Positions 9,682-46,123 of a DNA stretch of 64,000 nt are shown one piece after another. The translations under genes were made by a program, and so were the position numbers. The stretch's first letter is position 1; every line of letters begins with the position of its first letter. This stretch comes from a virus (taxonomy: Duplodnaviria; Caudoviricetes), in the IMG/VR virus record IMGVR_UViG_3300032038_000010, positions 1-64,000 of that record; one strand, given 5' to 3'. The notes beneath the pieces are model-generated. The model saw only the letters and a list, made by a program, of their open reading frames with translations. It ran no database searches and had not been told where the DNA came from.

Positions 9682-9870
9682 ATGGCAAAAGATAGATTAG
9701 CTCCTTGCGAGTTCTATGAATGTAAAGGTAAATGTTCTAAGCATCGAGAAGCATCTTATGGAGGATACTGCTAGCATTGTAGTAAATATATGCCACGAAA
9801 GGGTAGTAAGAATCTTGTTCGTGCTATGAAACAAAAGTATAGAGAGAAGAAATACAAGGAGGTGTATTAA
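9682..9870 (+). CDS. small Cys-rich protein (one in-frame TAG)
   Basis: promoter and RBS, MAKDRLAPCEFYECKGKC...GYC*HCSKYMPR, TAG at 9772, ends TAA; missing from the ORF track. Confidence 0.65.
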
Positions 9871-17191: not shown

Positions 17192-17500
17192 ATGGCAAAA
17201 GGAACACAATCTAAAGATACAATTACAAAAAAACTTCTCGAAACATTTAAGGGATCTTTCCTAGATGGGAAGGTACTACGGGTCCCGATGATAGAAGATG
17301 GAGAGGAAGTCCAGATTAAAATTACATTAACCGCAGCCAAGGATCTTATTACTCCAGATGGAGACGCAGTTGAGAAGGTAAAACCAGAAATGCTCAATTT
17401 TGAAGATGGTGCGGTAGCCGCTCAGGAGACGTCAGAGGTTCAGGATATTACCCCCGAAGAGCAGGAGAATATTCGAAATCTCCTTGATGCGCTCTTTTGA
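17192..17500 (+). CDS. hypothetical protein
   Basis: promoter and RBS. Confidence 0.6.
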   Translation: MAKGTQSKDTITKKLLETFKGSFLDGKVLRVPMIEDGEEVQIKITLTAAKDLITPDGDAVEKVKPEMLNFEDGAVAAQETSEVQDITPEEQENIRNLLDALF

Positions 17501-17577
17501 TTGGACAAAATATGTTAAGTTTTATGTAATACTTTTGTAATAATATTGTAACAATTAAACCCTCATTATGAGGGCAT

Positions 17578-17652
17578 AGGGCATTAGCTCAGTCCGGTTA
17601 GAGCATCTGGCTTATATCCAGCTGGTCCTAGGTTCGAATCCTAAATGCCCTA
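17578..17652 (+). tRNA. tRNA-Ile(TAT)
   Basis: cloverleaf AGGGCAT/ATGCCCT, loop CTTATAT, GGTTCGAATCC. Confidence 0.85.
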
Positions 17653-17751
17653 CTCTCCATTTGGAGATTAAGTGCGGCCGCGCGATTGTAGTATACTATG
17701 GTTGTGCGGCTGTTTATATTGAAGTAACAAATAGATAGATGGAGGTGTGTA

Positions 17752-18051
17752 ATGTCAAGAAGTTATAAACATAGTCCTTATTGCACTGATTCTCATTTGC
17801 ATAATACTATGAAACGATATGCAAATAAGAAAGTCAGACACACCGAAGGAGACTTCAAGGGTGGAGCGTATAAAAAGTTATTTTGTAGTTACGATATTTC
17901 TGACTACGCTTTTCGTGAAACCTATCGAGAAGCGGTAGATAAATGGGAACTTGCTCAAGAAGGTTCCGAATACTATGCGTGGATATTAAAATATTATTCC
18001 ACATTCGAAGACTATATCAATAATTGGCGTAAATATTACTATAGTAAATAA
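17752..18051 (+). CDS. conserved phage hypothetical protein (MSRSYK)
   Basis: GGAGGTG RBS, basic N-terminus. Confidence 0.6.
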   Translation: MSRSYKHSPYCTDSHLHNTMKRYANKKVRHTEGDFKGGAYKKLFCSYDISDYAFRETYREAVDKWELAQEGSEYYAWILKYYSTFEDYINNWRKYYYSK

Positions 18052-18112
18052 CTATCGTTTCTTTTCTATCTCATATAGGTCTAATCAATATAAGACATTA
18101 AGGAGAGAAAAA

Positions 18113-18889
18113 ATGAAACTTAATAAGACTAGAATTATTAGAGCAACAATTATTTCAATTACTGGTTTTGCTTTGTGTATGGGAGCCATGCCGCAAAAAG
18201 TATCAGAGCCAGAACCAAAATCTATTCCAAGTATTTCAGTTAAAGCAAAAGAAATCCAAATAGAAGATAAAAATATTACTGCTACATCACAGGCGGTACA
18301 GACTGTAGCTACAGTAGAAATTGAACCTAAGACTTTATATACTTCTACAGTAGTTAATTTTAGAAAAGATGCAAATCTTCAGGCCAAAATTATTAAAGTT
18401 CTTAATGGCGGTTGTCAAGTTGTTGTAACAAAAGAAAAAGGAGATTTTAGTTATTGTACAGTAGGTAATGAAACAGGCTATATAGCAACTAAATATCTGC
18501 AAGAGCAAAGTTACACAGATAGTGATTTACGATTAATGTCTGCTATCATATGGGCGGAAGCTGGTAACCAGTGCACTGGTGGAATGCAAGCGGTCGGAAT
18601 CGTGGTTATGAATAGGGTTGAGTCTGATGTATTTCCAAATTCAGTTCACGATGTAATTTACCAAAAATCCCAATTTTCGCCCACTATGAATGGTATGTAT
18701 AATACTGCGTTGAGTAAATATGATGCAGGAGAGCTACCAGATGAAGTGATTGCGGCCGCCCGTTATGCTTTATTTGGTAATAAAGTAATTGCATATAATG
18801 GTATATCTTATGATATGAGTAGTTACTTATTTTTTAGTAGATATAGAGCTGATTGTAGATTACAGATACAAGATCATCAATTTGCATAA
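18113..18889 (+). CDS. SH3b plus SleB/Hydrolase_2 cell-wall hydrolase
   Basis: N-terminal hydrophobic segment, GYIATKYL, AEAGNQ...VVMNRV...FP...VIYQKSQFSP. Confidence 0.85.
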   Translation: MKLNKTRIIRATIISITGFALCMGAMPQKVSEPEPKSIPSISVKAKEIQIEDKNITATSQAVQTVATVEIEPKTLYTSTVVNFRKDANLQAKIIKVLNGGCQVVVTKEKGDFSYCTVGNETGYIATKYLQEQSYTDSDLRLMSAIIWAEAGNQCTGGMQAVGIVVMNRVESDVFPNSVHDVIYQKSQFSPTMNGMYNTALSKYDAGELPDEVIAAARYALFGNKVIAYNGISYDMSSYLFFSRYRADCRLQIQDHQFA

Positions 18890-18918
18890 TAGATTACTGA
18901 GGTATAACCTCAGTATAT

Positions 18919-18998
18919 GCGAACTAAGACTTAATCTTGGAGGGACCAAGGACGAACTCCAAATTCGTTGTCAATGCGTCCGACTCGTATAGTTCGTG
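18919..18998 (+). tRNA. atypical tRNA-Trp(CCA)
   Basis: acceptor GCGAACT/AGTTCGT, ACGAA-CTCCAAA-TTCGT arm, enlarged D region. Confidence 0.65.
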
Positions 18999-19077
18999 CT
19001 TATAATAGTTTAAATATGCTTTCCTTTATTTTTTAAAAAAAATATCATATAATATATATAGAAAGTGAGGGAAAGAT

Positions 19078-19389
19078 ATGTCACATATTCTTAAATTATC
19101 AACATGGGAATCTAGTTCAGGTAGATGGCACGCCGCAGACACTTCAGATTTAGCTAATATGTCTGCATTTTGGGCGCATCCCATGAGATTGCTTGGGCAG
19201 ACTCCACAGGAATACATAGAGATGCTTCGAGATAAATATCATGCTTCTGATTTTAAGTTTTATAAAACAGAAGAGACAGGTACTAAAGATCACTCACTTT
19301 TACTTTTCTCTTTTGAAAAATATGCAGATGCTCATAAATTTGTTTTAGATATTAATCGTATTGCACGAAACAAAAATTTTTGGGTGTGA
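19078..19389 (+). CDS. hypothetical protein
   Basis: promoter and RBS. Confidence 0.6.
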   Translation: MSHILKLSTWESSSGRWHAADTSDLANMSAFWAHPMRLLGQTPQEYIEMLRDKYHASDFKFYKTEETGTKDHSLLLFSFEKYADAHKFVLDINRIARNKNFWV

Positions 19390-19750
19390 TGGACAAAGGT
19401 TTTGAATTAGTAAAATATCACTTTCATAAATAGATACATAAAGAACTTATTGATTTTCTATAAAAATTATTATATAATATATATAGAAAGTTAAGAGGAG
19501 GAAAAATCTATGAAGAAAATGTACAAGGTTGTTTATTTTGATGACGCACGTAGACAGCACTGGAGATTTACTGATTCACTTACAGAAATTAAGTTCATCA
19601 GAGATAGATTTGGAATCGTTACAATCAAGGCTCTTGACAACTAAAAAAATTTATGATATAATATTTATATAAAGAATTGACCTCAAAACAGGATTTAGGG
19701 TTCTGAAGGCAGAGAGGTCGTTAAAATAAACAGGCTGAGAACCCCGTAAT

Positions 19751-19824
19751 GCCGCTATAGCATAACTGGATAATGCCTTTGATTTGTAATCAAAAGACTT
19801 AGGGTTCAAGTCCCTCTGGCGGCT
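19751..19824 (+). tRNA. tRNA-Thr(TGT)
   Basis: TTTGA-TTTGTAA-TCAAA arm, GCCGCTA/TGGCGGC. Confidence 0.88.
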
Positions 19825-20227
19825 ATTCGATAACTTACTGCGTCATGAACAGACTAAGTTATCTATCCTGAATGTCTAGTAGGGAGAAACAAAGTAATAG
19901 ACTAGATGCCCATTGCTGATTGGGTGGTTGTTGGGAAATATGATGGATGGTAAAAGTCACCCCGTATAGAACCGATCTATACAATAAGAAAATTATACCT
20001 ACCCCGTGAATTTTTACTAAGTGAGTTTTCTCAGCGTAACAAAAAGAAAACATCATTAATCTGATTTCTAGAGTCAGGTGCAAAAGAAAAGAGTAGATTG
20101 ATAGATGGATAACACTTCGGGTGGTCGCAAAGGCAGGCGGTTGAGTCTATCAAAGATGCCATTACTCTTATCTTATTTCCTCCAGTTTGCCAGAGTTCGC
20201 CGCGGAGGTAAACCTAAACTGGCATTT

Positions 20228-20298
20228 TGACTACTATTTCAATGGTAGAAAGCGTGTCTGATAAGCACGTAATCCAAGTTCAATTCTTGGGTAGTCAA
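20228..20298 (+). tRNA. tRNA-Ile(GAT)
   Basis: CGTGT-CTGATAA-GCACG. Confidence 0.85.
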
Positions 20299-20394
20299 GT
20301 TAGGCGGTCTTAGGTGAAAGACGCATTTGGTTGGCTGCCAAGACCAGAATAGCCATTATGTGCGTGTGGCGCAGTTGGTAGCGCATATGATAAC

Positions 20395-20423
20395 TTGACA
20401 AGTATAAAAATCTTTGATAAAAT
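20395..20423 (+). promoter_or_regulatory. SigA promoter inside the insert
   Basis: TTGACA-17 nt-TAAAAT with extended TG. Confidence 0.8.
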
Positions 20424-20439
20424 GTAAGTATAAAAAAGC

Positions 20440-20511
20440 GGGCGCGTCGCCTAAAGGTATGGCACCAAACTTTTAATTTGGTCTATGTGAGTTCAATTCT
20501 CATCGCGCCTA
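20440..20511 (+). tRNA. tRNA-Lys(TTT)
   Basis: CCAAA-CTTTTAA-TTTGG, GGGCGCG/CGCGCCT. Confidence 0.88.
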
Positions 20512-20538
20512 TAGAATTAAAAAGGAGATTTTTATACT

Positions 20539-20970
20539 ATGTCAAGAGCAGAAAATAAAATAAAAGGTAATATTGGAGAAGCTGCAATTTTATTTGAATT
20601 TGTAAAAAGACAAATCCCTGTGTCCATTCCTTACGGTGATAATGAAAGGTATGATTTAATTGCTGAATTTAATGGCAAGTTAAATAAAATTCAAATAAAA
20701 TATTGTAGCCAAGAAAGTAGTAATGATGGTGTTATCTGTCCATGTGCTAGTAGCTATAATCATACTTCAACAAGAACTGGTTGGGAAGATTATACAAAAG
20801 ATGGAATAGATTATTTTTGTTTTTGGATTGCTCCTGACGACTTAGTTTTAATTATTCCCATCTCTGAAATAGGAGAACAAAAGAGTATAACTTTTAAAAG
20901 AACTCCTGCTAAAAATGGACAAGCTACAAGATTGATGCAAGATTATACCTTTGATAAAATGTTTTCTTAA
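20539..20970 (+). CDS. PD-(D/E)XK homing endonuclease (PDDEXK_5 / I-Ssp6803I-like)
   Basis: KGNIGEA...PYGDNERYDLI...KIQIK...IDYF. Confidence 0.8.
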   Translation: MSRAENKIKGNIGEAAILFEFVKRQIPVSIPYGDNERYDLIAEFNGKLNKIQIKYCSQESSNDGVICPCASSYNHTSTRTGWEDYTKDGIDYFCFWIAPDDLVLIIPISEIGEQKSITFKRTPAKNGQATRLMQDYTFDKMFS

Positions 20971-21013
20971 ATCATAGTGTCGTGGGTTCAAGTCCCACCA
21001 CGCACATGGATCT

Positions 21014-21086
21014 GGCGCGTTCTTCTAATTGGCTAGGATAGGGCCCTTTCAAGGTCCAGATATGGGATCGTTCCCCGTACTCGCTA
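21014..21086 (+). tRNA. tRNA-Glu(TTC)
   Basis: GGGCC-CTTTCAA-GGTCC. Confidence 0.85.
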
Positions 21087-21189
21087 TGAAGATTTTATAA
21101 TCTCCAGCTCAGTAAGGCGGTTTAACTGGGCCGCCGCACATACTGGTTGATTTTCTTCAAAATTTTTGATATAATATTTGTATAAGATA

Positions 21190-21254
21190 AAGGGACACAC
21201 AGCAAAAATTATTGGTAAAGAAAATTCTGGAAAAATTTTTAAATCTTGCCCCTT
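21190..21254 (+). ncRNA. ACAGCAA-stem small RNA, copy A (Ser-GGA-like loop)
   Basis: terminal stem, ACAGCAA, AAAATT-CTGGAAA-AATTTT; directly after a promoter. Confidence 0.55.
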
Positions 21255-21262
21255 GTTTGTAT

Positions 21263-21337
21263 TGCGGGATGGAGAAGTTCGGTTATCTCGTCTGCCTCAT
21301 AAGCAGAAGATCGCCAGTTCAAGTCTGGCTCCCGCAA
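21263..21337 (+). tRNA. tRNA-Met(CAT)
   Basis: TCTGC-CTCATAA-GCAGA; initiator-like body. Confidence 0.85.
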
Positions 21338-21598
21338 CTAGTTCATCGGTCTATGAAACGGAGTCGAGAAGAATCTCTCTCATTGATAGCCATGGTAAAA
21401 TCAACTACATTAGGAATAGACAGACCTAATCTTCGTAGGCATGTAGGATGAATGAATGGCGGACGCGCACACCATAGAGCCTTCGGGTTCAGAAGAACGC
21501 GCGCTAACTCTTTCCTGGAGCGTCTGGACGCGCTTTTTAAATATACAAGAGTAAAAAGGAGAGAGTGCGGCAGCCCGTGAAGCTCACCGCACTCGTAT

Positions 21599-21671
21599 AG
21601 TGGAGTAGCATAAAGGATAGTGCAATGGTCTTCTAAGCCATGTTGTGAGAGTTCGAATCTCTCCTTCACTA
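21599..21671 (+). tRNA. tRNA-Arg(TCT)
   Basis: ATGGT-CTTCTAA-GCCAT. Confidence 0.85.
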
Positions 21672-21720
21672 TTGTTCATCATTAGATGAATATTGTTTAG
21701 CTAAGCAAAGGAGATAATAA

Positions 21721-22032
21721 ATGTCAGTTGCGTTATTCCTTACTTTGCTTTCTATTGAGTCGGTAGTAATTGGTTTGGTAACAGAAGCTCTAAAGAAGGG
21801 TTTTCGTAATGCAGGTAAAAATCCTAGTGCAAACTTGATTGCATTAATCAATGCGGTCGTAGTAGGCGGGGGTGGAACAATTATCTATTATGTATTGATG
21901 GGAATTGCTTTCACTCCGATTAATATTGTTTGCATTATTCTTATGATTTTTGCTACTGCTATCTCTGCGATGGTAGGATACGATAAAACTGTTCAGACAA
22001 TTATTCAGATTACAAGCAAAGAAACAAAGTAA
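21721..22032 (+). CDS. holin-like membrane protein
   Basis: three hydrophobic helices, VTEALKK and AMVGYDK motifs. Confidence 0.55.
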   Translation: MSVALFLTLLSIESVVIGLVTEALKKGFRNAGKNPSANLIALINAVVVGGGGTIIYYVLMGIAFTPINIVCIILMIFATAISAMVGYDKTVQTIIQITSKETK

Positions 22033-22150
22033 CTTTCCTTCACTGTTCCTGGTGACGAGTCGCGATAAAAGACAGGATAAAGCCTAAAGTAAGTTTCTCA
22101 CGTATTTGAGAATTACTGCGGAGGGCGCGGCGCTCAGTGGAACCGCATAT

Positions 22151-22224
22151 ACTCGATTATCCCAAATGGCAGAGGAGATCGGTTTAAACCCGATTTAGTG
22201 TTGGTTCGAGTCCAACATCGAGTA
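22151..22224 (+). tRNA. tRNA-Leu(TAA), short variable arm
   Basis: ATCGG-TTTAAAC-CCGAT. Confidence 0.82.
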
Positions 22225-22299
22225 TTACTCTGGCGCCAGAGTAAAAATATTTTTAAGAAGTGAGCATTAAGAATAGAATATGCTCAAAAGGAGAATATT

Positions 22300-22575
22300 A
22301 TGAAGATTCAGTATATTAGTGATGTAACCAATAAGGCGTATGATACAAAAGAGGAACTAGAAAAGGCTGAAGCGGCCGCCCTTAATAAGAAAAATGCTAG
22401 GGAGGCCCGCGCAAAGGAAGTTGAAGATGCTATGAAGGCAGCTCGTGACGCTAATAAGCACGCGCGCGAGGTAATGTCAAAGTTCTGTGCTGACTATGGT
22501 GCATACCATACCACAATCCATGACATTAAAGACTTCGATCCTTTTGATTGGTTTACCGATTGGTTTCTTTTTTAA
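22300..22575 (+). CDS. hypothetical coiled-coil protein
   Basis: AAGGAG RBS. Confidence 0.65.
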   Translation: MKIQYISDVTNKAYDTKEELEKAEAAALNKKNAREARAKEVEDAMKAARDANKHAREVMSKFCADYGAYHTTIHDIKDFDPFDWFTDWFLF

Positions 22576-22591
22576 TTTAATTTAAAAGATA

Positions 22592-22730
22592 TAGACACAT
22601 AACAGCAATCGTATAAAAATACAAGCATATTCGAAGATGAATAATATCATAAAAGGCGAAATAGTATTGAGAATACTTCGTGGTAACCTTGCCTAAGTAT
22701 TAGGCACAAATATAGTATCTTATGTGTCTA
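22592..22730 (+). ncRNA. ACAGCAA-stem small RNA, copy B (long)
   Basis: TAGACACATAA/TTATGTGTCTA stem, ACAGCAA, internal hairpins. Confidence 0.55.
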
Positions 22731-22735
22731 GCTAT

Positions 22736-22809
22736 GGGGCTGTAGCTCAGCTGGGAGTAGCGCGTCTTTTGCAAGGACGAGGTCGTGAGTTCGATCCTCA
22801 CCAGCTCCA
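22736..22809 (+). tRNA. tRNA-Ala(TGC)
   Basis: GGGGCTG/CAGCTCC with G3:U70, loop TTTGCAA. Confidence 0.9.
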
Positions 22810-22816
22810 TGAATAT

Positions 22817-22889
22817 ACGAGATTAGCTCAATCGGGAGAGCATCTGGTCTACACCCAGAAGGTTGATGGTTCAAGTCCATCATCTCGTA
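22817..22889 (+). tRNA. tRNA-Val(TAC)
   Basis: TCTGG-TCTACAC-CCAGA. Confidence 0.85.
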
Positions 22890-22890
22890 C

Positions 22891-22963
22891 TGTGTGCGTG
22901 GCAGATAGGTAATGCGGCGGTTTGTGGAACCGTTATATGAGGGTTCAAATCCCTCCGTACACC
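22891..22963 (+). tRNA. tRNA-His(GTG)
   Basis: GCGGT-TTGTGGA-ACCGT, C73. Confidence 0.85.
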
Positions 22964-23120
22964 CTTGATAATTATTAAAAATTATCATATAATATATATA
23001 TAAGATAAAGGACAAGAGAAAAGAAGTGGCTTCCACCACTCTAATACGGGAATATGGAATTAATAAGTTAGAGGAACTCAAGGGTAATACTCTTCAAGTG
23101 CGGGTTGTGCCGCACAATAA

Positions 23121-23203
23121 CGGTAGGTATGCCTAGCAGCGAGGGCAAGACACTGTAAATGTCCCACATAGAAACATCGTTGGTGCAAGTCCAACCCTGC
23201 CGA
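23121..23203 (+). tRNA. tRNA-Tyr(GTA)
   Basis: loop CTGTAAA, long variable region. Confidence 0.82.
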
Positions 23204-23215
23204 TTTTATATATCC

Positions 23216-23289
23216 CGCGCGGTCGTCTACGTTAGCTAGGATGGGAGTCTCTAAAACTCCAGAACTGGGGGCAGCACCCAGGCGCGTGA
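23216..23289 (+). tRNA. amber suppressor tRNA (anticodon CTA)
   Basis: GGAGT-CTCTAAA-ACTCC (CTA at 23251-23253), T arm CTGGG/CCCAG, D arm like tRNA-Glu. Confidence 0.85.
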
Positions 23290-23574
23290 ACTGCTCACTT
23301 GATGATGCAACTAACAGAGTGAGAGACTTAATAGAGTTGCAACTATGTGAAGTCCTAGACCTTGCACCAGCGAGGATGGGAACCTGCGGCTTTTGTAGAT
23401 TGAAGTCGGGTCGCCGCATCTATGCATAAGCGACAAAATCTACATTTTTATTTGGGAAGATAATCAATTGAGGATGTGCGGCAGCCGCGGTGTGAAACGT
23501 CACCAAGGCAGGCAGCCCGCATATAATTTGAAAAAGTAGAAAATATATTATATAATATATATATAAGATAAAGA

Positions 23575-23641
23575 AAGACACATACAGCAAATAAAAATTC
23601 TTGCAAATATCTGTTAAATATTTAAGCAAACAATGTGTCTT
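23575..23641 (+). ncRNA. ACAGCAA-stem small RNA, copy C (Asn-GTT-like loop)
   Basis: AAGACACAT/ATGTGTCTT, AAATAT-CTGTTAA-ATATTT; directly after a promoter. Confidence 0.6.
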
Positions 23642-23650
23642 GACTATTGA

Positions 23651-23723
23651 TGGGGTGTAGTTCAGTTAGCAGAACGCGTCGCTTGGGACGACGAGGTCGC
23701 AGGGGCAGGACCTGTCACTCCAA
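23651..23723 (+). tRNA. tRNA-Pro(TGG)
   Basis: CGTCG-CTTGGGA-CGACG. Confidence 0.85.
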
Positions 23724-23840
23724 TTGACCTGAGGAAAGGCCGCTTAGGCGTTCAACAGACCAATCCGCAGGGGCTAATAGCCAAAGAAACGCCAAAGAAT
23801 TGAGAATATTTGTTCAGAAAAGAACTGAAAATCTGGAATA

Positions 23841-23876
23841 GCTGTAGTGGCGAAACGGCAAACGCTGGGAGACTTA
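23841..23876 (+). pseudogene. 5' half of a tRNA-Leu-like gene
   Basis: GCTGTAGTGGCGAAACGGCAAACGC...GACTTA; no matching 3' half found. Confidence 0.45.
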
Positions 23877-23931
23877 GTGCTTCCGATTCTTAAGCACGAA
23901 ACAGCCCGTTGAGGGTTGGGGAGTACACTGA

Positions 23932-24246
23932 GACAAAACCAATAATGCAGTATCAAATCTGCGCTGGAATACATATAGTGAACAAATAAAAAATTCAGAT
24001 AATCCTTTTGTAAATCATCCAGAATATCAACAAATTGGAGCGAAAGTTGTTTCTAAGGCAGTTGAACAAAGAGATATAAATAATCATAATATTTTATATA
24101 ATACTTATCCATCAAGTTGTGCAGCTGCTAAAGCATTGTTTAATGATAGTTCTAAAAATAGTTTAATTAATAGGTGTGCCAATGGTAAAAAACCATCAGC
24201 TTATGGCTATTGGTGGTGTTTTGTAAATAATGGGGATGAGGTGTAA
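23932..24246 (+). pseudogene. 5'-truncated HNH-NUMOD1 endonuclease
   Basis: DKTNNAVSNLRWNTYSEQ (end of HNH) and YPSSCAAAK...INRCANGKKPSAYGYWW (NUMOD1); TGA immediately upstream, no start codon. Confidence 0.7.
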
Positions 24247-24304
24247 GGGTATGTGCACGCTGCGCCTGGGACGCAGAGGAGGAGTTCGAGTCTCACATCT
24301 CCAA
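24231..24304 (+). tRNA. tRNA-Pro(TGG), second divergent copy
   Basis: CTGCG-CCTGGGA-CGCAG. Confidence 0.7.
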
Positions 24305-24422
24305 CTAACCTAGAAAAAGGTTTCTCTCGTGTCCAGCAAAATGAAAGTCATACCAGCAGACAGGTTCAGTCTCAATGCGAGAGTCGCACGCTTCTATAAA
24401 TCTGGAGAAAAGAAGCTCTCAT

Positions 24423-24493
24423 TGGGGTATAATATAATAGCAGTATAGTGGTCTCTGACACCAACAATTCAAGTGCAACTCTTGATACCCCAG
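24423..24493 (+). tRNA. tRNA-Gln(CTG)
   Basis: loop CTCTGAC, U1-A72, G73. Confidence 0.82.
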
Positions 24494-24504
24494 GTTATTT
24501 TTAT

Positions 24505-24575
24505 AGCGGATTCGTATAATAGTAGTACAGGAGCCTTTGAAGTTTCTGGCGGGGGAGCGTAACCCTCATCCGCTG
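24505..24575 (+). tRNA. tRNA-Gln(TTG)
   Basis: loop CTTTGAA, G73. Confidence 0.78.
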
Positions 24576-24724
24576 CTAGTCAGATGGACGGAAATCATCT
24601 GGTGAAGAAATTCCATAGAAAGTCGCCCTGCTCGGGAACGCGTGTCTTTTAAAGAGTAGTTCTAGAACTTTTGCAGATATACTGACACTATGGAGGTTAG
24701 TGCTGAACCTTAAAAGCGCGACAT

Positions 24725-24798
24725 ACTCTTGTAGCATAACTGGATAATGCTTTCGGCTACGAGCCGAATGATTGCAGGTCCGAGTCCTGTCAAGAGTA
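24725..24798 (+). tRNA. tRNA-Arg(ACG)
   Basis: TTCGG-CTACGAG-CCGAA. Confidence 0.85.
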
Positions 24799-24865
24799 TT
24801 TGAAAATAATGAAAATTTTTGATATAATATATGTATAAGATAAAGAAAGAAAGGGCAATATAAAA

Positions 24866-25228
24866 ATGACAAATGATTATCAGAAGGCACTCGATCAGCT
24901 CCTTGCGAAGTATGCTCCTTCTTATACGAAGAAGTCTACTACCAATATCACCAATGTTAAGAGCTGGGATCGGTTCATGGCTAAGATGCAGCCAATCCCC
25001 ATGTTCAAGGATGATAAGGAGATGAAGAAGTACGAGAGTGACCTGTATACGGCGGCCCGTGCTGATGAGGATTCTCTAATCGAGGCTTACAAGGCTAAGA
25101 AGCTGAAGTCGAAGCGACTTATCAAAGAAGCTCGCACACTCGTCAAGAAGCGCAAGGCAGAGGCCGCAAAAGCTAATAAGGCTAAGTCAGGCAATAAGCC
25201 TGTTGATAGCACTCAGGCTATTGCTTGA
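24866..25228 (+). CDS. basic hypothetical protein
   Basis: promoter upstream, K/A-rich, biased codons. Confidence 0.65.
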   Translation: MTNDYQKALDQLLAKYAPSYTKKSTTNITNVKSWDRFMAKMQPIPMFKDDKEMKKYESDLYTAARADEDSLIEAYKAKKLKSKRLIKEARTLVKKRKAEAAKANKAKSGNKPVDSTQAIA

Positions 25229-25283
25229 GTATAAACATATACCTCCTTTCGTGGTTGGCGGCGAGACCTAAGCCGCCACCCAT

Positions 25284-25355
25284 GTCGCACTGGTGTAGCG
25301 GATAGCATATCTGCCCTCCAAGCAGACGGGGCCAGTTCAAATCTGACGTGCGACT
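25284..25355 (+). tRNA. tRNA-Gly(TCC)
   Basis: TCTGC-CCTCCAA-GCAGA, U73. Confidence 0.85.
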
Positions 25356-25365
25356 TATCCCATAA

Positions 25366-25656
25366 AAGACACATACAGCAAAATAAATTAAAGATGATTC
25401 TTTTAAAAAGAATAATATTTTAATAAGAGTGTCTTGTGCTTAATCAATATAATAAGATTGAAAGGCAATTACTGCAAATAATATTTTTGCTTCAAAATTA
25501 ATTAATAAGGGGGAGAACGCAAAAGCCCTCGATTGCCTTGACTTTTTACCTTTCTTTCTTTTACATATAGAGAAGCACACAGCAAAACATATTATAATAT
25601 CATATTATTTGAGATGATACAAAAGTATCAAGTAAATATTAAGTAATTAGCTTCTC
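25366..25656 (+). ncRNA. three tandem ACAGCAA-stem small RNAs: D (25366-25435), E (25462-25539), F (25570-25656)
   Basis: covarying stems AAGACAC/GTGTCTT, AAGGCAAT/ATTGCCTT, GAGAAGC/GCTTCTC, each followed by AC(A/T)GCAA; D has ATTCT-TTTAAAA-AGAAT. Confidence 0.6.
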
Positions 25657-25730
25657 GAACAGTATATAATGAACAATAGTTCACTTGATACCACGGGAAG
25701 TTACATAATGTAACTTCCCGTATTTTTTAT

Positions 25731-25806
25731 GTCGTAGAGGTGCGGCGGACGCACGGCAGACTGCAAATCTGCTGTTAGAAAGAAAGTTCAACTCTTTCCT
25801 GCGACT
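25731..25806 (+). tRNA. tRNA-Cys(GCA)
   Basis: GCAGA-CTGCAAA-TCTGC, U73. Confidence 0.8.
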
Positions 25807-25859
25807 TTTATTAAGCAAATTAATTTACATTTGGCAAAAGAAGAAAGGAAAATAAATTT

Positions 25860-27359
25860 ATGAACACTTTTATGAATGGTCTGAAAAATTTTGGCAATAT
25901 GACTTATACAGAAAACGGGGCAGCCGCACTGAAGTCGACAGGAAGCGCAGTTTATGATATGTTTGCGGTTGGCGCTTCATATCGTAATAGATCTGATGAA
26001 GATATTATTCTTCTTTTCAAGAACGCTCTTGAAGAGAATGAATCACTTGCGCTCAAGTGCCTCTTCTATATCAGGGACATTCGTGGCGGGCAAGGAGAAA
26101 GACGCTTCTTCCGTGTAGCGTATAAGTGGCTGGCTAACACATATCCAGCTATTGCTGAACGTAATTTAAACCAGTTTTCTGAGTATGGACGTTGGGATGA
26201 TCTTGTATATATCTGTCTTAATACTCCTCTTGAGGATAAGGCTATGAAGATTATCCGTGATCAGATTAATCTTGATCTTGAGTCCAAAACCCCCTCACTT
26301 TTGAGCAAGTGGCTTCCGTCAGAAAACGCTAGCTCCGAAGATACTAAGAGGGCAGCTCATATCGTTCGTAAGCATCTGGGGCTTACAAGCAAGCAGTACC
26401 GTAAGGTTCTGTCTGAACTGCGTAAGAGAATCAATGTGCTTGAGCGTTTGATGTCTAGTAACCAGTGGGATAAGATAGAATTTGACCAGATTCCATCGAA
26501 AGCGGGGCTAGTCTATAAGAACGCCTTCGCTAGACGCGACATCATCGCTAAGAAGTATGAAGCATTTGCAAAAGATAAGTCAACTAAAGTAAATGCGGGC
26601 GCCCTGTATCCTTACGAGATTGTTGCCAAGGCAGTTAATTACTTTGGTGGCTACTACGGATATGGTAGAGGTGATGATACAGACCGCGCTATGATTGAGA
26701 AGTATTGGGAGAGTCAGAAAGATTATCTCAAAGGATCTAATCTTTCGATGCTTTGTGTTTGCGATACTAGCGGAAGTATGCGCGGCTATAATGCTTCAGC
26801 TCCCATCAATGTGGCTATTGGACTTAGTATGTATGCGGCTGAACGTGCGAATGGTCCTTTCCATAATCATTATATTAGTTTTTCCTCTCGTCCTCAGCTT
26901 ATTGATATTAAGGGCGTAGACTTTGTAGATAAAGTACAACGTATCTATGACACTAACTTATGTAGTGATACTAATATTGAGAAGGTTTTTGATTTACTTC
27001 TTAGTATTGCTCAACAGCCTGGTGTAAAGAAAGAAGATATACCTGGAACCATTGTCATTATATCCGATATGCAAATAAATGCGGCTACGGGTTATTCTAC
27101 TGAATGGACTGAAAATAATAGTCAGCTTGAAATGGAGAAGATTAAATCTAAATGGACAGTCGCAGGCTTTAAAGTTCCTAAATTAATTTATTGGAATGTT
27201 AGTGCAAGAGGTGAAGCAAATATTATTGATCGAGGCCCTGACGTATCATTTGTTTCAGGCTGTTCACCAGTATTATTTGAACAGATACTTTCTGGTAAGA
27301 GCGGAATAGATATTATGATGGACAAGCTGAATAGTGATCGTTATCAAGTAATTCACTAA
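25860..27359 (+). CDS. DUF2828-family protein (TROVE/Ro60-like helical domain plus vWA)
   Basis: TENGA, RDIRGGQGERR, YGRWDDL, KWLPSE, MIDAS DTSGSM, ISDMQ, IYWNV. Confidence 0.85.
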   Translation: MNTFMNGLKNFGNMTYTENGAAALKSTGSAVYDMFAVGASYRNRSDEDIILLFKNALEENESLALKCLFYIRDIRGGQGERRFFRVAYKWLANTYPAIAERNLNQFSEYGRWDDLVYICLNTPLEDKAMKIIRDQINLDLESKTPSLLSKWLPSENASSEDTKRAAHIVRKHLGLTSKQYRKVLSELRKRINVLERLMSSNQWDKIEFDQIPSKAGLVYKNAFARRDIIAKKYEAFAKDKSTKVNAGALYPYEIVAKAVNYFGGYYGYGRGDDTDRAMIEKYWESQKDYLKGSNLSMLCVCDTSGSMRGYNASAPINVAIGLSMYAAERANGPFHNHYISFSSRPQLIDIKGVDFVDKVQRIYDTNLCSDTNIEKVFDLLLSIAQQPGVKKEDIPGTIVIISDMQINAATGYSTEWTENNSQLEMEKIKSKWTVAGFKVPKLIYWNVSARGEANIIDRGPDVSFVSGCSPVLFEQILSGKSGIDIMMDKLNSDRYQVIH

Positions 27360-30270: not shown

Positions 30271-30669
30271 TTAAAATGTTGTCCATTCGATGTTTGCTTG
30301 ATTACAAGAAATTTCTTCCTTAGTTGCTTTATCATCGTCAGAATAAGTTAATAAAACTATCATAGGTGTATTGTCTTTAACCTAACTATAAAAAATTACT
30401 TTCTAGTTAGTTTCTGTATCTTTAGTTACTGTAAGTGTGCGCGGGGCCCGGTCAATCACCGTCATGACCTAGCCCTCCGCGTCTTCTTTATAGTACCCAG
30501 AGAGTGAATAGACACCGTATGGTAGTGTTTGTAGCTAGATGGGAGCATCTTGAGTCCCCCTCGCTGTGGCGATAGGCTTGTTATATAGTTTATCATAGTC
30601 AGTTGTTCCGCCCCCACCACCGGAGCCGCCGCCTGCCCTGAAGCTACCATAAAATGAAACCCCACTCAT
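30271..30669 (-). CDS. structural hypothetical protein (4 in-frame TAG)
   Basis: MSGVSFYGS...GGGTTDYDKLYNKP..., ends TAA. Confidence 0.65.
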
Positions 30670-30688
30670 TAATACGGTCTCCTTTCAA

Positions 30689-30967
30689 TTAATAAACAAA
30701 GTCTATAGTAGCTTGAGCGCCTTCGGGGAAAATTAGACTTTTAACATTAACTATTGAGTCCAATTCAAAAACACCAGTTTCACAAATCTCCATTTCCACG
30801 CCATTGATAAGAACCTTAGTTCCAGGTTCTGTGATGATACCAATCTTATAAAGAATCGGTGCGGTTGTTTCTGGAGTCTTCAAATCTATTGCTCCGCCTT
30901 TAGCGAGGAGGTCTACGCCGGCTTCGAATGTTCCCTTTACTTGATTATATCGACCATTCAATACCAT
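30689..30967 (-). CDS. small structural protein
   Basis: resembles 39877..40170. Confidence 0.65.
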   Translation of the reverse strand: MVLNGRYNQVKGTFEAGVDLLAKGGAIDLKTPETTAPILYKIGIITEPGTKVLINGVEMEICETGVFELDSIVNVKSLIFPEGAQATIDFVY

Positions 30968-31462
30968 AGTTATTTATCCTCCTTTGATCAGGCTTTATTC
31001 GCCTTCTATAATATTTTATTTTCTGTAGAGGTTGTCTATAATTGTTTTTGTCCTCAAGAATAACTTTTTTTATTCTCTACAGATTAGATATAGGAGTACA
31101 ATAAAAATCTGCAGTCCAAAACCAGGGAAGATTCAAATTTCTTGCGTTTTCATTGAATTGACAACAAAACATATCTTTCTTTAATTTATAAATAACATTA
31201 GGCTTACCGACAGTTAAAGAATTAATTTCTTCAATTAACTTTCCACGCTCTTCCCAATGTCCATCATCATTACCAACTAAGCAGTCTCTGCTATGTTGAC
31301 TAGATGCAAAACACGCTAACTGGCCAGCCGGTGTATAAAGAGACTCGTCCTAAAATCGGTACAACTAGGCCCCCGCAGGTAATAGTGGACCATTCCAAAC
31401 TTGGAAAGGCTTATATACTCTGTAAATTTTATCCATACTCCTTGTATCTCCTTAATTAATTA

Positions 31463-31624
31463 TTAATATTTTTCTCCAGTAAGTTCTTCAAACTTCTCTT
31501 TTGAAATAACATTATTTTCTACATCAGCTCTCATTAATTCAAGAACCTTGTCTCTATAGTATGCGGGACAATCTTCAAATCTTTGAGTCTCCGCTTCAAT
31601 TCTATTTCTCCAAATCTTAGGCAT
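31463..31624 (-). CDS. XkdX-like small protein
   Basis: ISKEKFEELTGEKY C-terminus. Confidence 0.55.
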   Translation of the reverse strand: MPKIWRNRIEAETQRFEDCPAYYRDKVLELMRADVENNVISKEKFEELTGEKY

Positions 31625-31838
31625 TAGTCTTTCCTCCCTCTAGTTTAGCTACTTTCTTTTCAAGGGCTTCGATTCTTGCTTCAATGTCTGTATTAAAATC
31701 ACATAAAGCATCCTGTGAATCACTAATGCCGGAAGCATTTTTAATATGTTTTTCCAAGAAATAGTTATCAATTCTTGAATCCAGTGCGTTCATTTGCTTT
31801 TGAACTGAATTAAAAGCTCTTAGTAACTCTTCTGTCAT
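31617..31838 (-). CDS. coiled-coil hypothetical protein
   Basis: RIEALEKKVAKLE. Confidence 0.6.
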   Translation of the reverse strand: MTEELLRAFNSVQKQMNALDSRIDNYFLEKHIKNASGISDSQDALCDFNTDIEARIEALEKKVAKLEGGKTNA

Positions 31839-31842
31839 ATCC

Positions 31843-32952
31843 TTATGTCTCCTTTTTTAACTCTGTTTCAAGCTATTTATATAACAAAGTCATATTGTGC
31901 AACGACAATTTATTATCATATTTTTTAGCGTTACTTGACCAGGATTGAAAACTCATCTCTATTGCCGAGAAAGGTATTTTACCTTCTCTAACCTTTTGTC
32001 CTAATTTCTTAAGTTTTCTTCTCTAACTAGTTATATTCTTACGAGATAACTACTTAATGATTTTACCAGTCTGAATAACTCTAATATTTTTCTTTAAGAA
32101 AGTCATTCCATGACCTATTTTAGTAATTTTTATTTTGGTAGGTTTTAAAGTTAAATCTAACGCATCAGCTTCTTCATGTAACGCATTGACAATTTGTAAT
32201 GCTTCTTCTTTAGTATGGACAATCGCATAGCTATCATCCATATATCTACCATAATATTTACAATGCTCTTTCTATTTAATTCTCTTATCTAATGAAGTAG
32301 GATAATAAATAGCGCAGATTTGAGATACTTGGCTACCTAGACCAAGCCCTCTATTTCCGAAGCAATTAATAAAATATTCAGTTAATTCTAATATATCTTT
32401 ATCTGGAATGATTTGCTAAAGTTTCTAAAATAATATCTAATGATTAATGCTATTAAAGAAATCGGAGAAATCAAATACAACTACATAAAAATCATTTCCC
32501 CATTCTCTATATGCTTTCTCTAAATGTTTATACAATCTCTATAAAGTAAATTGAACACCTTTGTCCTTTAAACTAGCGCCATTATCATATATTAGATATT
32601 TCTGAATTACAGGAATAAGGTAATAATCGCATAAACATCTTTGAACAACTCTTTCAGATATATGTACTGCACGAATATGTCTTTTCTTTCCACGCTACAT
32701 AATATTAAACTAAACAAAACCTCTGCTTTTATAGGTTTTATTTAATAATCGATTGCGTAATTCAATTAATTCAGTTGGAAAATTTTGCTAATATATTTGA
32801 ATACTAGCTTTCCACCTAACACCTTTTCTACATTGAAAAAATGAACTAATTAAATTATCTAATGAAAACAACTAATCTAATGTATGTGGAATATTATCTT
32901 TCTTATTCGCTTTCTTTTGTTGTTGTCGTATGATTCTATTAATCTTTTTCAT
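31843..32952 (-). CDS. DGR reverse transcriptase (369 aa, ~12 in-frame TAG)
   Basis: KGVRWK, RGKKRHI, ERVVQRCL, IYDNGAS, DFSDFF, GLGLGSQVSQ, YGRYMDD; ends TAA. Confidence 0.93.
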
Positions 32953-33287
32953 AATATTAAACAAAAAAAATATTCCCAAGGCAGTGGGTGGTAATATCTA
33001 ATTTACTAACTGCTTATATAATAAGATTTGAAAAATTGAATAAATTAGAAAAACTTCAATTCCAAGCGTAGGTAGCAAACACTCATTATATCCTGAGAAT
33101 CAATTTAATAAATTAAAAATAATTTATAGAGTCATCAGTTCCTTCAAATGTTTATTTCAATAATTATATACTAAATTTATAGTACCACAAGACACTATAA
33201 TAAAGTTATATCCTAGATCAGCCTCATTACCAATCTATCTAACAGATAGTATATATAATTTAAATGTTTAAGAATAAACATTTAAAT

Positions 33288-33415
33288 CGCAGGCAACAAA
33301 CCCATTGTTACCGTTGGCCGCGTTATTGTTGTTGGCACTCCCGTTCGAGTTCACATTGCAGAAGTTATTTGAATTGCCCGAATTAACTGAACGCAAGAAC
33401 CAGTTATTAGCGGAA
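33288..33415 (-). repeat. DGR template repeat (TR)
   Basis: 128-bp match to the VR; AAY-rich; flanked by hairpins at 33259-33286 and ~33413-33435. Confidence 0.95.
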
Positions 33416-33620
33416 GGGCGCATAAAGCGCCCTTCCAAAACTAACAAACAGTATCCTTTTTAAGCGAAACAAAATTAAAACAAGTAAATAAGGAAAACTA
33501 GAATATGAAGACGAAGTATCAGGAGAAAACTGACCAACAATCAACGAAATAAGTCCAACTTCACTTCGAGATCATTGCTAGTTTCCAACTAATAACTCGT
33601 TACTATTTTTGGTTGATAAG

Positions 33621-34043
33621 TTACTTTTTATTCATCTTTCTATGGTCATTCGCTAAATCATGAATGGCATTATCTAAAGATTGAATACATTTGAACAATT
33701 GATTATATAATTGTTCTTTCTAATGCGGAGTCATTTGTTTATGGTCATCATATAACTCTGTATAGACTGACAGTTCAGCATTAAATGCTTGTAGCGTAGT
33801 ATAGGCTTGCATTAAAGCGTCATGGGCTTCTTCATAATCTTTCTAATTAGCCATTTTTCTATAAAAATTATATCCTATAACCTAGTGCTAGTAAACAAAT
33901 TGAGCCATCCCCTAGAACTTACCTAAGAAAGTAAGATTAAAACGCTTTTTCTACCCATATCTAAATAACATGACAACTAAATCTCTGCCGTCTTTTAAAT
34001 ATTCTGTAGAAGCAAGGTCTCTACTAGATACTAGAACTGACAC
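33621..34043 (-). CDS. avd: DGR accessory (Avd-like) protein, 6 in-frame TAG
   Basis: GTG start after AGGAGGTG, MSVLVSSRDLASTEYL, 140-aa helical protein between target and TR. Confidence 0.7.
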
Positions 34044-37619: not shown

Positions 37620-39854
37620 TTACTCAGACACCACAAACCAATAACCTTTATCATTTAGTATGGCGGCGTCCGCGTCATCTGGCTTTGAACCAGTACTATC
37701 GGCTTTCGCAACCAGCATCGTAAGATGAGGCTTTACACTTGTAGATGATAAATCCTGGATCTTATACCAACCCTTATTACCGATATAATCATAAGCATAA
37801 AGCTCTATCATACCGCCATTCTCTACAGTTGCAACCCAACCTGCTCTATTTGCGGTCGCCGCATCAGTCCCAAAACCACTCGGATACGCAGCCTTTAAAG
37901 CATCAAGCGAGGTATAATGACCAATGATGTGGTTCCCAGAAAGAATAGGACCTAGATTCTCCCAACGGTATAGCTGGGTCCCCGCACTTTCATTTTTCTT
38001 ACCGTCCGCATCCAGTTCATAATAATTAATCAATCCATCTCTATACTCAGGACTAGACCAGAGAATACATAGATTATCACCATATAATTTTGCATTAACT
38101 ACATAATTTAAGTTATCAGAAATAATTGTTTCATCTCCAATAACAGGGTCGCCACTATCTGTGTGACCTATATTATAATTAGCAAATAGATTCTGCTCTT
38201 GAAGAATATCGCCTTTGTTCTTAATACCAATTTTATTAATTGTTTTCAATTTCAAAGGTAATGTAACAGTATCCTTGACACCATTTGTTTTTGTAGAGTA
38301 AGTAACAACGATAAAATTATCATTATTCAAAGATAAATTATCTACAGACTTTAATGTAGTAGCTAATGTATCTTCATCTCCTGTATTATAGATGATTCTA
38401 ATCGTACCATTATCATCTATAACCATCTATTTAACAAACTTGATTTGTGTAGGAATATATTCAATGTTATGTCCATCCGCATCAGTAGTAGGATAAGAAA
38501 TTACATCACCTTCTGGACTAAGCGTAGGAATATCATTTATAACAATGTTCCCCCTACCATCTCTATTGTAGGTATTATATCTAATAACAAGATTTTGTAG
38601 CTGGTCATCAAAATATACATCTTCAATATTCTTAAATGTACTAACTTGTGTTCTCTCATTTATGTCAGTATACTTGGCATAAACGCTACCATCTTTATCT
38701 ATTGAAAAACCTTCAAGTAGACGAATATTAACAGTATCGTCATCTCCTGCGGTATAATCAATAGTAAGAAGATTAGGAGGAAGCGGGTTCTACTTAATAA
38801 CTTGCCAAACTACTGAACCATCAATAACCTTGCTTCCTTCTACGTAATTAGTTAATACTAAATTGCTATCACTTGTCGTACCTGCGGTTCTACTATCTGA
38901 ATTAGTGCTGCCAATGCACATGAGCAATAACCCGCTAGGTAGTGTATTATTCTTAGCAATAGTACCAATAGCATAAGATGTAGAGCGTGCGGCAGCCTGA
39001 TAAGTAACTGGTTCATTAGTATTACTTGGTGTTATATCTTTAATAACTCTATAAGCACCAATGTTAGTAATTTCCTTTTCACCAGCTTCACTATTTTCAT
39101 AGTTAGTTCTAGTTACTTCAAAATACTGAGCTTCTTCGTCATCTTTATTGACAACTAAATTATTTACATCTGCGCCATGCTTACCTCTAGGTACACTAAT
39201 CTTCCAGCTACCAGTAAAAGGTCTATTAACAGTCTGCTCTGCTAATTCTGCGGGCGCGTCATAAGGACTAACCTCTTCTGCGGAAAGATGTAATACATAG
39301 TATGGAATAGTAATACCTAATTGGCATCCATATACATTACCATCTTTATCCTTTAGCGTAGTATACTTATAAGTAATATTATCTTGTGTATCACCTGCTA
39401 CACTATCAATCTCACCAGTGCCAGACGTTGCGCCATCTGTAATCTCTGACTCTTTTACAATATGCAGTTCTGGAGTCTCGCCCTGCGGACCTACAATCTG
39501 TCCAATATATTCTGCGCCCGCGCCAGGAGCAAGAACATAAGCAGTAAATGCTGTTTTATATGCGGCCGGGTCAGGGTTACCTGTGGTCGGGTCCTTATAG
39601 TCAGATAGGACAGGGGCCGCCGCAATGTCTTCAGTATAATTAAATCCTCTTCGGTAAATTATACCATTCTCAGGGTTTTGCTTCTAATGATTATTTATAA
39701 TAGTATCTATAATAATATACTATCCATAACCTACTTCATTATAACTCCCGCCCTAAGAAAAAGCTTTACACATATCTAATACACTGTCGAAATGTTGTAC
39801 TAGATTATATGTGATGCCTGATTTACCACCATAAAATGATGTTACACTAGACAT
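37620..39854 (-). CDS. large tail/baseplate-associated protein (744 aa, TAG readthrough)
   Basis: MSSVTSFYGG..., GQIVGPQG; same frame as 37620..38426. Confidence 0.7.
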
Positions 39855-45629: not shown

Positions 45630-45659
45630 ACCCAATCCCTCCTTTTATCTCTTAATTAG

Positions 45660-46031
45660 TTATTTCTTCTACGGGGCGGTAGTAGGTAAATCAACTATTT
45701 CATCTTTAATCCTGTCAATTATGCCATCGCCACCTAAGTTTTTGTATGCTAAATATAATGGGTGATATACTTCTCGTTCATCTAAAGTATAATAACCTTG
45801 TCTCTTAGTGTGTCCATAGTTCTAGAGTAAAGCTATACGTATCAAACCAAGCATAGCCTACTTAAAAGTATGTCTCTATTGTTCTTGCTCTAACTTCATT
45901 TGACGCTATTTCTATCTATATTCATGTGTCTCTTTGTCTCTCCGATTAAGACGTATAGATATAGAAGTACTAATAAAAGCTGAAATAGCTCCAATGCCTA
46001 TCGTTATGAGTTGAGTTAAAACTGGATTCAT
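45660..46031 (-). CDS. holin-like membrane protein (6 TAG)
   Basis: N-terminal TM helix, YKNLGGDG...LP motif of Firmicutes phage lysis-associated proteins. Confidence 0.55.
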
Positions 46032-46123
46032 TAGAATCTCCTTTCTCTAAAGGGTGTATTTCATTACCTCTAAAAATAAAAGAAAAAAGGGCAAGACTGT
46101 TGAATACATCTTGCCCAAATTTC

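Follow-up and report, generated by a model that had tools for sequence, protein, structure and literature searches.

Probable reading of UAG as glutamate by a phage-encoded, tRNA-Glu-like amber suppressor in a bovine-gut phage

Stop-codon recoding in phages has hitherto been counted as two cases, TAG read as glutamine and TGA read as tryptophan, plus TGA read as glycine where the host does the same; only TAG-to-Gln and TGA-to-Trp were observed in phages whose code differs from that of the host (Borges et al., 2021 preprint). The TAG=Gln phages (genetic code 15) include crAss-like, Lak and phAss-1 phages, among others (Borges et al., 2021 preprint; Peters et al., 2022; Babkin et al., 2023), and the description of phAss-1 gives it three suppressor tRNAs with the anticodon CTA beside TAG=Gln. 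The present analysis concerns a window of 64,000 nucleotides at the start of one phage contig of 136,945 bp (IMG/VR record IMGVR_UViG_3300032038_000010, hereafter G000). At positions 23216-23289 of its plus strand the window encodes an amber suppressor tRNA of 74 nt with a cloverleaf fold, the anticodon CUA and the body of a tRNA-Glu. Most probably, UAG is a sense codon for glutamate in G000 and is decoded by this phage-encoded tRNA, a tRNA-Glu(CUC) with the anticodon CUA. A reading of TAG as Glu through a tRNA-Glu-like suppressor had been proposed from the letters of the window alone (the sequence-only reading below). It is now supported by the columns of homologous proteins, by the DNA of relatives with a Gln-type phage as control, by the orthology of the suppressor with a tRNA-Glu(CTC) gene and by the agreement between tRNA body and TAG meaning in related phages. 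TAG=Glu, if true, adds a variant to the recodings of phages.

To our knowledge, the cases of UAG=Glu described so far are confined to nuclear codes of eukaryotes, namely NCBI table 30 (peritrich ciliates) and table 31 (Blastocrithidia). In these codes UAG is read as Glu by a tRNA-Glu-derived suppressor, as it probably is in G000, but UAA also means Glu there, whereas in G000 TAA stays the main stop. The G000 case further differs in belonging to a virus, in being of bacterial type, in the standard code of its host and in a probable regulation over time. The searches, made among open-access papers and preprints, turned up no phage or bacterium for which TAG=Glu is claimed. The code-15 phages resemble G000 in carrying TAG in late, structural and lysis genes, in their TAG-free early genes, in a CUA suppressor lying within a tRNA array and in the absence of a phage aminoacyl-tRNA synthetase. 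They differ in the amino acid and in the source of the suppressor, which are Gln and tRNA-Gln in those phages and Glu and tRNA-Glu(CUC) in G000. One of them, phAss-1 (OQ749652.1), is like G000 in genome size, in a tape measure of ~3,150 aa and in layout, and is only distant at the DNA level. Laboratory suppressors of Escherichia coli share with the G000 tRNA the combination of a tRNA-Glu body and a CUA anticodon, the latter tRNA being natural, conserved and used at >130 sites. Engineered E. coli tRNA-Glu amber suppressors are reportedly prone to Gln mischarging in a host that contains glutaminyl-tRNA synthetase (GlnRS).

Meaning of the in-frame TAG codons

G000 originates from the bovine gut, and contigs resembling the tRNA region of the window occur in bovine-gut metagenomes. 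Early genes and a tRNA array (17.5-25.8 kb) lie on the plus strand in the left arm, and minus-strand genes start at about 28 kb. Comparison of open reading frame (ORF) lists showed that the long minus-strand genes are fragmented under code 11 and become intact ORFs once TAG is read through. Five long ORFs are broken under code 11 by 12-23 in-frame TAGs each, and the minus-strand reverse transcriptase (RT) and tail genes between 30.2 and 60.5 kb together hold ~126. These TAG-rich genes are otherwise intact, conserved and provided with full-length homologues, as recoded genes should be; in the plus-strand early genes, in-frame TAG is essentially absent. Of the Glu codons inferred for the RT and for four tail genes, TAG makes up 31-44%; its share is 8% in the tape-measure gene and about nil in the early genes. 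TAA is the commonest terminator, closing 96 code-11 ORFs of at least 100 aa; the long ORFs are bounded by TAA or TGA, and a Glu meaning of UAA of the kind found in tables 30 and 31 was not seen. Searches of the whole genome with the domain of glutamyl-tRNA synthetase (GluRS) and GlnRS (PF00749) and with the release-factor domain (PF00472) gave no match.

The TAG codons of the RT, a diversity-generating retroelement (DGR)-type enzyme (31843-32952, minus strand; 369 aa from its ATG, 12 in-frame TAGs, Pfam RVT_1), fall on some of its best-conserved positions. Among thousands of homologues the best 119 were aligned, and the TAG at position 86, within the ERGK motif, stands opposite E in all 119. 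The TAG at position 81 is matched by 105 E among the 119, that at position 227, directly before YxDD, by 93 E and 19 D, and that at position 172 by 50 E and 19 D. In an alignment with the RT of a Bordetella-phage DGR (PDB 8ub7), position 81 lies opposite E and position 227 opposite D. The strongly conserved Gln columns of the same alignment (52, 104, 208, 211 and 336) are all encoded by CAA in G000, which confirms what had been noticed about five conserved Gln positions before any homologue was consulted. The 879-aa tail protein (42996-45635, minus strand; 22 in-frame TAGs), compared with 119 full-length homologues, gave TAG-column totals of E1052, Q275 and D199, with single columns reaching E113/Q3, E111/Q8, E103/Q15, E98/Q15 and, in one case, D103/N13. 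A Codetta-like log-likelihood computed from column profiles was best for E in both proteins, Q falling behind by 18.6 in the RT and 21.6 in the tail protein. When the two proteins were pooled, TAG occupied 10 of the 21 columns with at least 70% Glu and 0 of the 10 columns with at least 70% Gln (Fisher p=0.012). Glu dominates the TAG columns, and the dominance of Gln that code 15 implies, which the sequence-only reading had named as the outcome speaking against it, was not seen. The recoding and the Glu preference of the TAG columns are shown by these computations, in so far as sequence comparison can show them.

A database RT that is 99% identical to that of G000 has Q at every TAG position, and public protein collections translate Glu-type relatives with TAG=Q (P0001, P0138 and P0150; L010 and L011). 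The minority of Q in columns that are otherwise nearly pure E is explained by recoded relatives whose TAG codons were written as Q by the gene caller. Such annotation raises the Q counts and, hence, works against the conclusion of TAG=Glu; it could also mislead column-based inference of codes. If TAG means Glu, the TAG-encoded residues in public collections are wrong, including the Glu of the RT ERGK motif, with harm to homology search, structure prediction and metaproteomic matching.

Because database proteins carry this artefact, the comparison was made at the DNA level as well, by tblastn with TAG treated as X. The sense residues opposite each TAG were counted, and the counts were calibrated on the residues opposite each genome's own sense codons. 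The set was made up of full genome sequences for phAss-1 and for the IMG/VR relatives G001 and G003, together with other loci. The phylogenetic relatedness of the aligned pairs inflates the log-likelihoods, and the more cautious numbers are those of the site-level and Fisher tests. The 136 TAG sites of G000 (437 pairs) were best explained by E, with Q at -101 nats and D at -149, and the 184 sites of G001 (636 pairs) likewise by E, with Q at -168 nats. The same procedure applied to phAss-1 (168 sites, 610 pairs) returned Q as best, with E at -98 nats, in agreement with its publication, which means that the pipeline can distinguish Glu from Gln. Against the standard-code relative G003 alone, the counts for G000 were E31 and Q7. 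At the level of single sites, 39% of the G000 TAG codons favour E and 14% favour Q, the remainder being uninformative; for true codons in the same genes, the figures were 55% E and 14% Q for GAA/GAG, and 13% E and 56% Q for CAA/CAG.

The TAG sites quoted in the sequence-only reading (32710, 32695, 32272, 44238, 44166, 44724, 42472, 41533, 41584 and 39753) were all located where it had placed them. In the DNA of relatives, the tail sites 44238 (E4), 44166 (E3), 44724 (E4), 42472 (E5), 41533 (E4) and 42529 (E3) face E, as do sites beyond the window at 67900 (E8), 71710 (E5) and 112134 (E4). A search of viral contigs with the 879-aa protein found no relative, and searches of phage collections with a 492-aa protein and with 4.7 kb of tail-gene DNA gave marginal matches only, to FP_Brigit and phAss-1.

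Among the alternatives, the one that fares best, though still unlikely, is an ambiguous decoding, in which GatCAB amidates part of the glutamylated suppressor, or GlnRS charges part of the suppressor, so that a mix of Glu and Gln is inserted with Glu as the functional residue at conserved sites. Such a mix would fit the closeness of tRNA-Glu and tRNA-Gln in this phage group, where the tRNA-Glu(CTC) of the closest relative (contig L048, see below) even has U1-A72. It would also fit the frequent glutaminylation of CUA-anticodon tRNAs in E. coli (discussed in the Borges preprint) and a site-level mixture fit that, without calibration on true Glu sites, gave 0.76 of the sites as E-like. However, the Q-favouring share of TAG sites (0.14) is that of real Glu codons, and TAG is missing from all ten columns with at least 70% Gln, though it accounts for a third of the inferred Glu codons in these genes; the G000 suppressor, furthermore, has C1-G72. 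The Gln-like minority of sites, from which a mixed reading had been considered possible, gave it no support: 41584 (Q1 S1 A1 R1) and 39753 (K2 Q1 L1) lie in variable columns, and 9772, in a small Cys-rich ORF, is without homologues.

Structure and origin of the suppressor tRNA

The suppressor folds into a cloverleaf (minimum free energy -26.2 kcal/mol) with stems of 7/4/5/5 bp, U8, A14 and U33, and its anticodon loop reads CTCTAAA. A custom cloverleaf scan of the whole genome gave it as the sole CTA/TTA/TCA candidate with 20/21 pairs. The acceptor starts with the pairs C1-G72 and G2-U71, followed by GCGCG, and the discriminator is A73; the D arm reads TC-GTCT...AGGAT, and the variable loop, AGAA, has 4 nt. 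The resemblance to tRNA-Glu claimed from the letters alone was thus found in each of its parts, namely the GCGCG acceptor, the D arm, the 4-nt variable loop and A73. The D-stem pairs U11-A24, C12-G23 and U13-G22, together with the 4-nt variable loop, make up an augmented D-helix. E. coli GluRS is said to use such a helix, with U11-A24, U13-G22, A46 and nucleotide 47 missing. The anticodon departs from the YUC of the tRNA-Glu family, being CUA with A in place of C at position 36. Neither the T-psi-C loop nor G18-G19 is canonical, the T loop being GGCAGCA and the D loop ACGTTAGCTA. ARAGORN never called 23216-23289, lowered thresholds giving noise only, and the Rfam tRNA model (RF00005) did not match the suppressor even at E<=10 on a 96-nt stretch. 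These misses are likely due to the T loop, to the D loop without GG and to a G-G opposition at 7-66.

The ordinary tRNA-Glu(UUC) of G000 (21013-21087, plus strand) has the D arm and variable loop in common with the suppressor; it is the only ordinary Glu tRNA left, and no tRNA-Glu(CTC) gene remains in the genome. Both tRNA-Gln genes, for CUG (24422-24494) and UUG (24505-24576), on the plus strand, are unlike the suppressor, with U1-A72 or A1-U72, G73, other D arms and 5-nt variable loops. This agrees with the earlier observation that the suppressor resembles neither of them and lacks U1-A72. The three genes were found with relaxed settings only.

Relatives' tRNA arrays were retrieved by means of the DUF2828 (Ro60-like) gene that lies 2.6 kb downstream of the suppressor. 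The closest relative is a Logan contig (L048) with an 80% identical DUF2828 protein. Its tRNA genes run in the order His, Tyr(GTA) and then a tRNA-Glu(CTC) (L048:7337-7409), which occupies the syntenic position of the G000 suppressor. The synteny is anchored by the conserved upstream neighbour, in G000 a tRNA-Tyr(GUA) at 23121-23203 (plus strand; Rfam 37.8 bits, ARAGORN -ps90), and the order of Tyr followed by Glu(CTC) or the suppressor is present in L048 and L050. The suppressor and the L048 tRNA-Glu(CTC) are 78% identical, with a position-by-position alignment of acceptor, D arm, anticodon stem, variable loop and T stem. Their anticodon loops are TTCTCAC in L048 and CTCTAAA in G000, and the 1-72 pair covaries, U-A in the former and C-G in the latter. 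In a family alignment of eight members (three suppressors and five Glu tRNAs), 94.6% of the cells are paired and 13 of the 21 pairs have double changes; this level of pairing was reached by 0/500 shuffles, all four helices are supported by covariation, and U11-A24, C12-G23 and U13-G22 of the D stem do not vary.

Among the ARAGORN-called tRNAs of 83 related loci, the nearest non-suppressor tRNAs were those for Glu. Synteny and structured alignment were required since whole-length pairwise identity, computed over 105 tRNAs, discriminates poorly (Glu 0.66/0.64 against Gly 0.64). In a BLAST search, the suppressor had no significant match in phAss-1 or in four IMG/VR relatives, and a scan of the collection with its anticodon arm returned ten loci, which were suppressors with unrelated bodies and some non-tRNA matches, with no orthologues. 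The descent of the suppressor from tRNA-Glu, as a tRNA-Glu(CUC) gene with C36 changed to A, is shown computationally by the comparison of these sequences.

More doubtful than a mixed decoding is the possibility that TAG does mean Glu while 23216-23289 is a decayed copy of tRNA-Glu, the acting suppressor being host-encoded or undetected. The non-canonical T and D loops, the 7-66 mismatch and the lack of an ARAGORN or Rfam match point in that direction. Yet this is the only CTA cloverleaf in the genome, compensatory changes preserve the cloverleaf across the family, and other G000 tRNAs also have odd T loops. The sequence, including the CTA anticodon, is conserved in contigs from two other bovine-gut studies, where the gene differs by a single G-to-A; the sequencing-run data are contigs and hold no information on tRNA ends. 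In addition, canonical T loops are found in the Glu-type CTA tRNAs of relatives with TAG=Glu; in L091, for example, the suppressor has the acceptor and T stem of that of G000 and the T loop TTCGACT.

Unusual T loops are frequent in the array as a whole (17500-25900), where many tRNAs have non-canonical sequences such as TGCAACT, AGCGTAA, GGCAGGA and ATCGTTC; T loops of the types TGCAAxT and GGCAGGA recur among the other G000 tRNAs. Default ARAGORN overlooks these tRNAs, or Rfam gives them low scores, and standard tRNA counts for the phage group are underestimates. A second tRNA-Pro(UGG) (23651-23723) was found by Rfam with permissive filters only.

Related phages and the decoding mechanism

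The survey of relatives covered 83 loci around DUF2828 homologues (IMG/VR, ENA and Logan) and 48 from genome assemblies. The loci divide cleanly into those with TAG=Glu (E-type: L049, L061, L063-65, L071, L072, L091, L098, L114, L136, L139 with a weak signal, L150, L156 and L179) and those with TAG=Gln (Q-type: L051, L054, L056, L079, L081, L087, L093, L097, L101, L104, L112, L115, L118, L119, L122, L126, L127, L129, L148, L160, L167 and L175). Wherever a locus holds a CTA tRNA, the tRNA body fits the inferred meaning of TAG, without exception. The E-type loci with such a tRNA (L061, L071, L091, L098, L136, L139 and L179) all have Glu-like bodies, and Gln-like bodies occur in the Q-type loci L079, L093, L126, L127, L148, L160, L167 and L175 and in phAss-1. 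The Glu-like bodies have D stems GTCT, GTCA, GACA or GTGG, mostly 4-nt variable loops and nearly always A73, while the Gln-like bodies have U1 or A1, G73 and an encoded CCA.

The Glu-type suppressor bodies are of at least three different kinds, and in the DUF2828 tree the E-type, Q-type and standard-code phages are interleaved. This suggests several origins of TAG=Glu, although a tree of a single gene cannot prove them. TAG=Glu may well be a recurrent and so far unrecognised phage code, with several origins in one group of ~130-kb Bacillota gut phages beside TAG=Gln and standard-code sisters. Each origin would have turned a different tRNA-Glu gene into a CUA suppressor, the adopted amino acid might be set by host aminoacylation (GluRS plus GatCAB versus GlnRS), and present pipelines, with code 15 and callers of the prodigal-gv type, would systematically mistranslate these phages, with Gln placed wherever TAG stands for Glu. 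Sister phages of the Glu and Gln types would then form a natural experiment on the determinants of reassignment, such as the synthetase repertoire of the host and the CUC-to-CUA and GAG-to-TAG steps.

Ordinary code 15, with TAG=Gln and with the Glu columns arising from GAG-to-TAG mutations tolerated as conservative Glu-to-Gln changes, is very improbable: although all described recoded phages, the related phAss-1 included, were assigned TAG=Gln and some TAG-opposite-Glu columns in Lak terminases were explained in this manner (Crisci et al., 2021), in G000 TAG stands on an invariant Glu column (119/119) and never replaces a conserved Gln, the same pipeline does give Gln for phAss-1 and >20 related loci, the suppressor is orthologous to tRNA-Glu(CTC) and unlike the G000 tRNA-Gln genes, the synonymous CAG-to-TAG transitions that should dominate do not, and the disadvantage amounts to ~100 nats.

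If UAG is read as Glu by the phage's own tRNA, a tRNA-Glu(CUC) gene would have changed its anticodon from CUC to CUA (C36 to A) and kept the Glu-type body. Compared with CUC, the CUA anticodon loop retains U35 and A37, position 36 alone being different. In organisms that make Gln-tRNA via GatCAB, GluRS, which there also charges tRNA-Gln, tolerates G36. The host GluRS would have to charge the suppressor despite A36, and the attached Glu would escape amidation to Gln, which the missing U1-A72 plausibly blocks. By analogy with other recoded phages, the late genes with TAG would be completed only once the suppressor is present, and with the suppressor gene in the array of the early strand, their completion would wait for the tRNA to accumulate. 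Under this reading, the known tendency of CUA tRNAs toward Gln charging does not dictate which amino acid is chosen, and a GluRS-charged amber suppressor would be a candidate part for genetic-code engineering in Gram-positive hosts. G000 itself is a siphovirus-like phage, distantly related to phAss-1, with hosts that probably belong to the Bacillota; the phAss-1 paper predicted Clostridia hosts.

Besides the relatedness of the aligned pairs, several points weigh against the decoding of UAG as Glu by this tRNA. C36 is an identity element for E. coli GluRS, so the charging of a CUA tRNA is not a given. The T loop of the suppressor is without T54, psi55 and A58, the D loop is without GG, and position 7-66 is a G-G mismatch; given such odd loops and the misses by two tRNA finders, the activity of the suppressor is not assured. 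Alignment columns reflect the preference of selection and not the residue inserted by the ribosome. About 14% of the TAG sites individually favour Gln, which equals the background of true Glu codons and would be compatible with a small Gln fraction. The proposed role of the missing U1-A72 is weakened by the L048 orthologue: because this tRNA-Glu(CTC) has U1-A72, Glu and Gln tRNAs of the phage group cannot be told apart by the 1-72 pair alone. Finally, the host is not fixed, the labels of the relatives' metagenome-assembled genomes being mostly Bacillota, with obvious mis-binnings.

The suppressors of several relatives (L179, L082, L089, L130, L148 and L076) have inserts of 15-25 nt between the anticodon stem and the T stem. 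These inserts, either a long variable arm or intron-like, occur in both Glu-type (L179) and Gln-type (L148) phages. The three CTA tRNAs of phAss-1 (OQ749652.1; 62442-62610 and 105744-105820, minus strand) differ from one another; one, Gln-like with A1-U72 and G73, has 21 nt inserted in its variable region, and another starts with UGGGG like tRNA-Gln. The tape-measure gene of that phage has 110 in-frame TAGs, whose columns favour Gln. A signal of TAG=Tyr in L069 (10751-11270, minus strand) was rejected as an artefact of an antisense ORF across the DUF2828 gene. Antisense ORFs over conserved genes can fake reassignment in tblastn-based inference, which calls for caution in automated surveys.

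Other genes and the flank of the suppressor

The remaining TAG-rich genes of the minus strand include that of a 744-aa protein (37620-39854; 5 in-frame TAGs), a 679-aa tail protein (40960-42999; 21 TAGs) with a DUF5048 C-terminus in Pfam, and a small protein of 152 aa (45660-46118; 7 TAGs). Further along are a tail fibre-like protein of 1612 aa (46124-50962; 23 TAGs) with a Peptidase_S74 C-terminus (Pfam) and a tape-measure-like protein of 3140 aa (51016-60438; 20 TAGs), on whose homologues PhageMin_Tail is recorded. The RT is flanked by small TAG-rich ORFs (30271-34043, minus strand) of 132 aa with 4 TAGs, 163 aa with 3 and 140 aa with 6, which could be DGR accessory or target genes. The only clear in-frame TAG of an early gene lies in a Cys-rich ORF of ~60 aa (CxxxxC...C*HC; 9683-9870, plus strand), for which the set contained no homologue.

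The sequence right downstream of the suppressor is nearly identical in G000 (23290-23470 and 23700-23935) and L048 (7411-7540), and this flank is more conserved between the two than the tRNA itself. Contigs of two bovine-gut metatranscriptome runs span 23326-23466 and 23702-23933 and not the tRNAs, and have no bearing on the expression of the suppressor. These conserved stretches may be structured, Y-RNA-like elements beside the Ro60-like DUF2828 gene.

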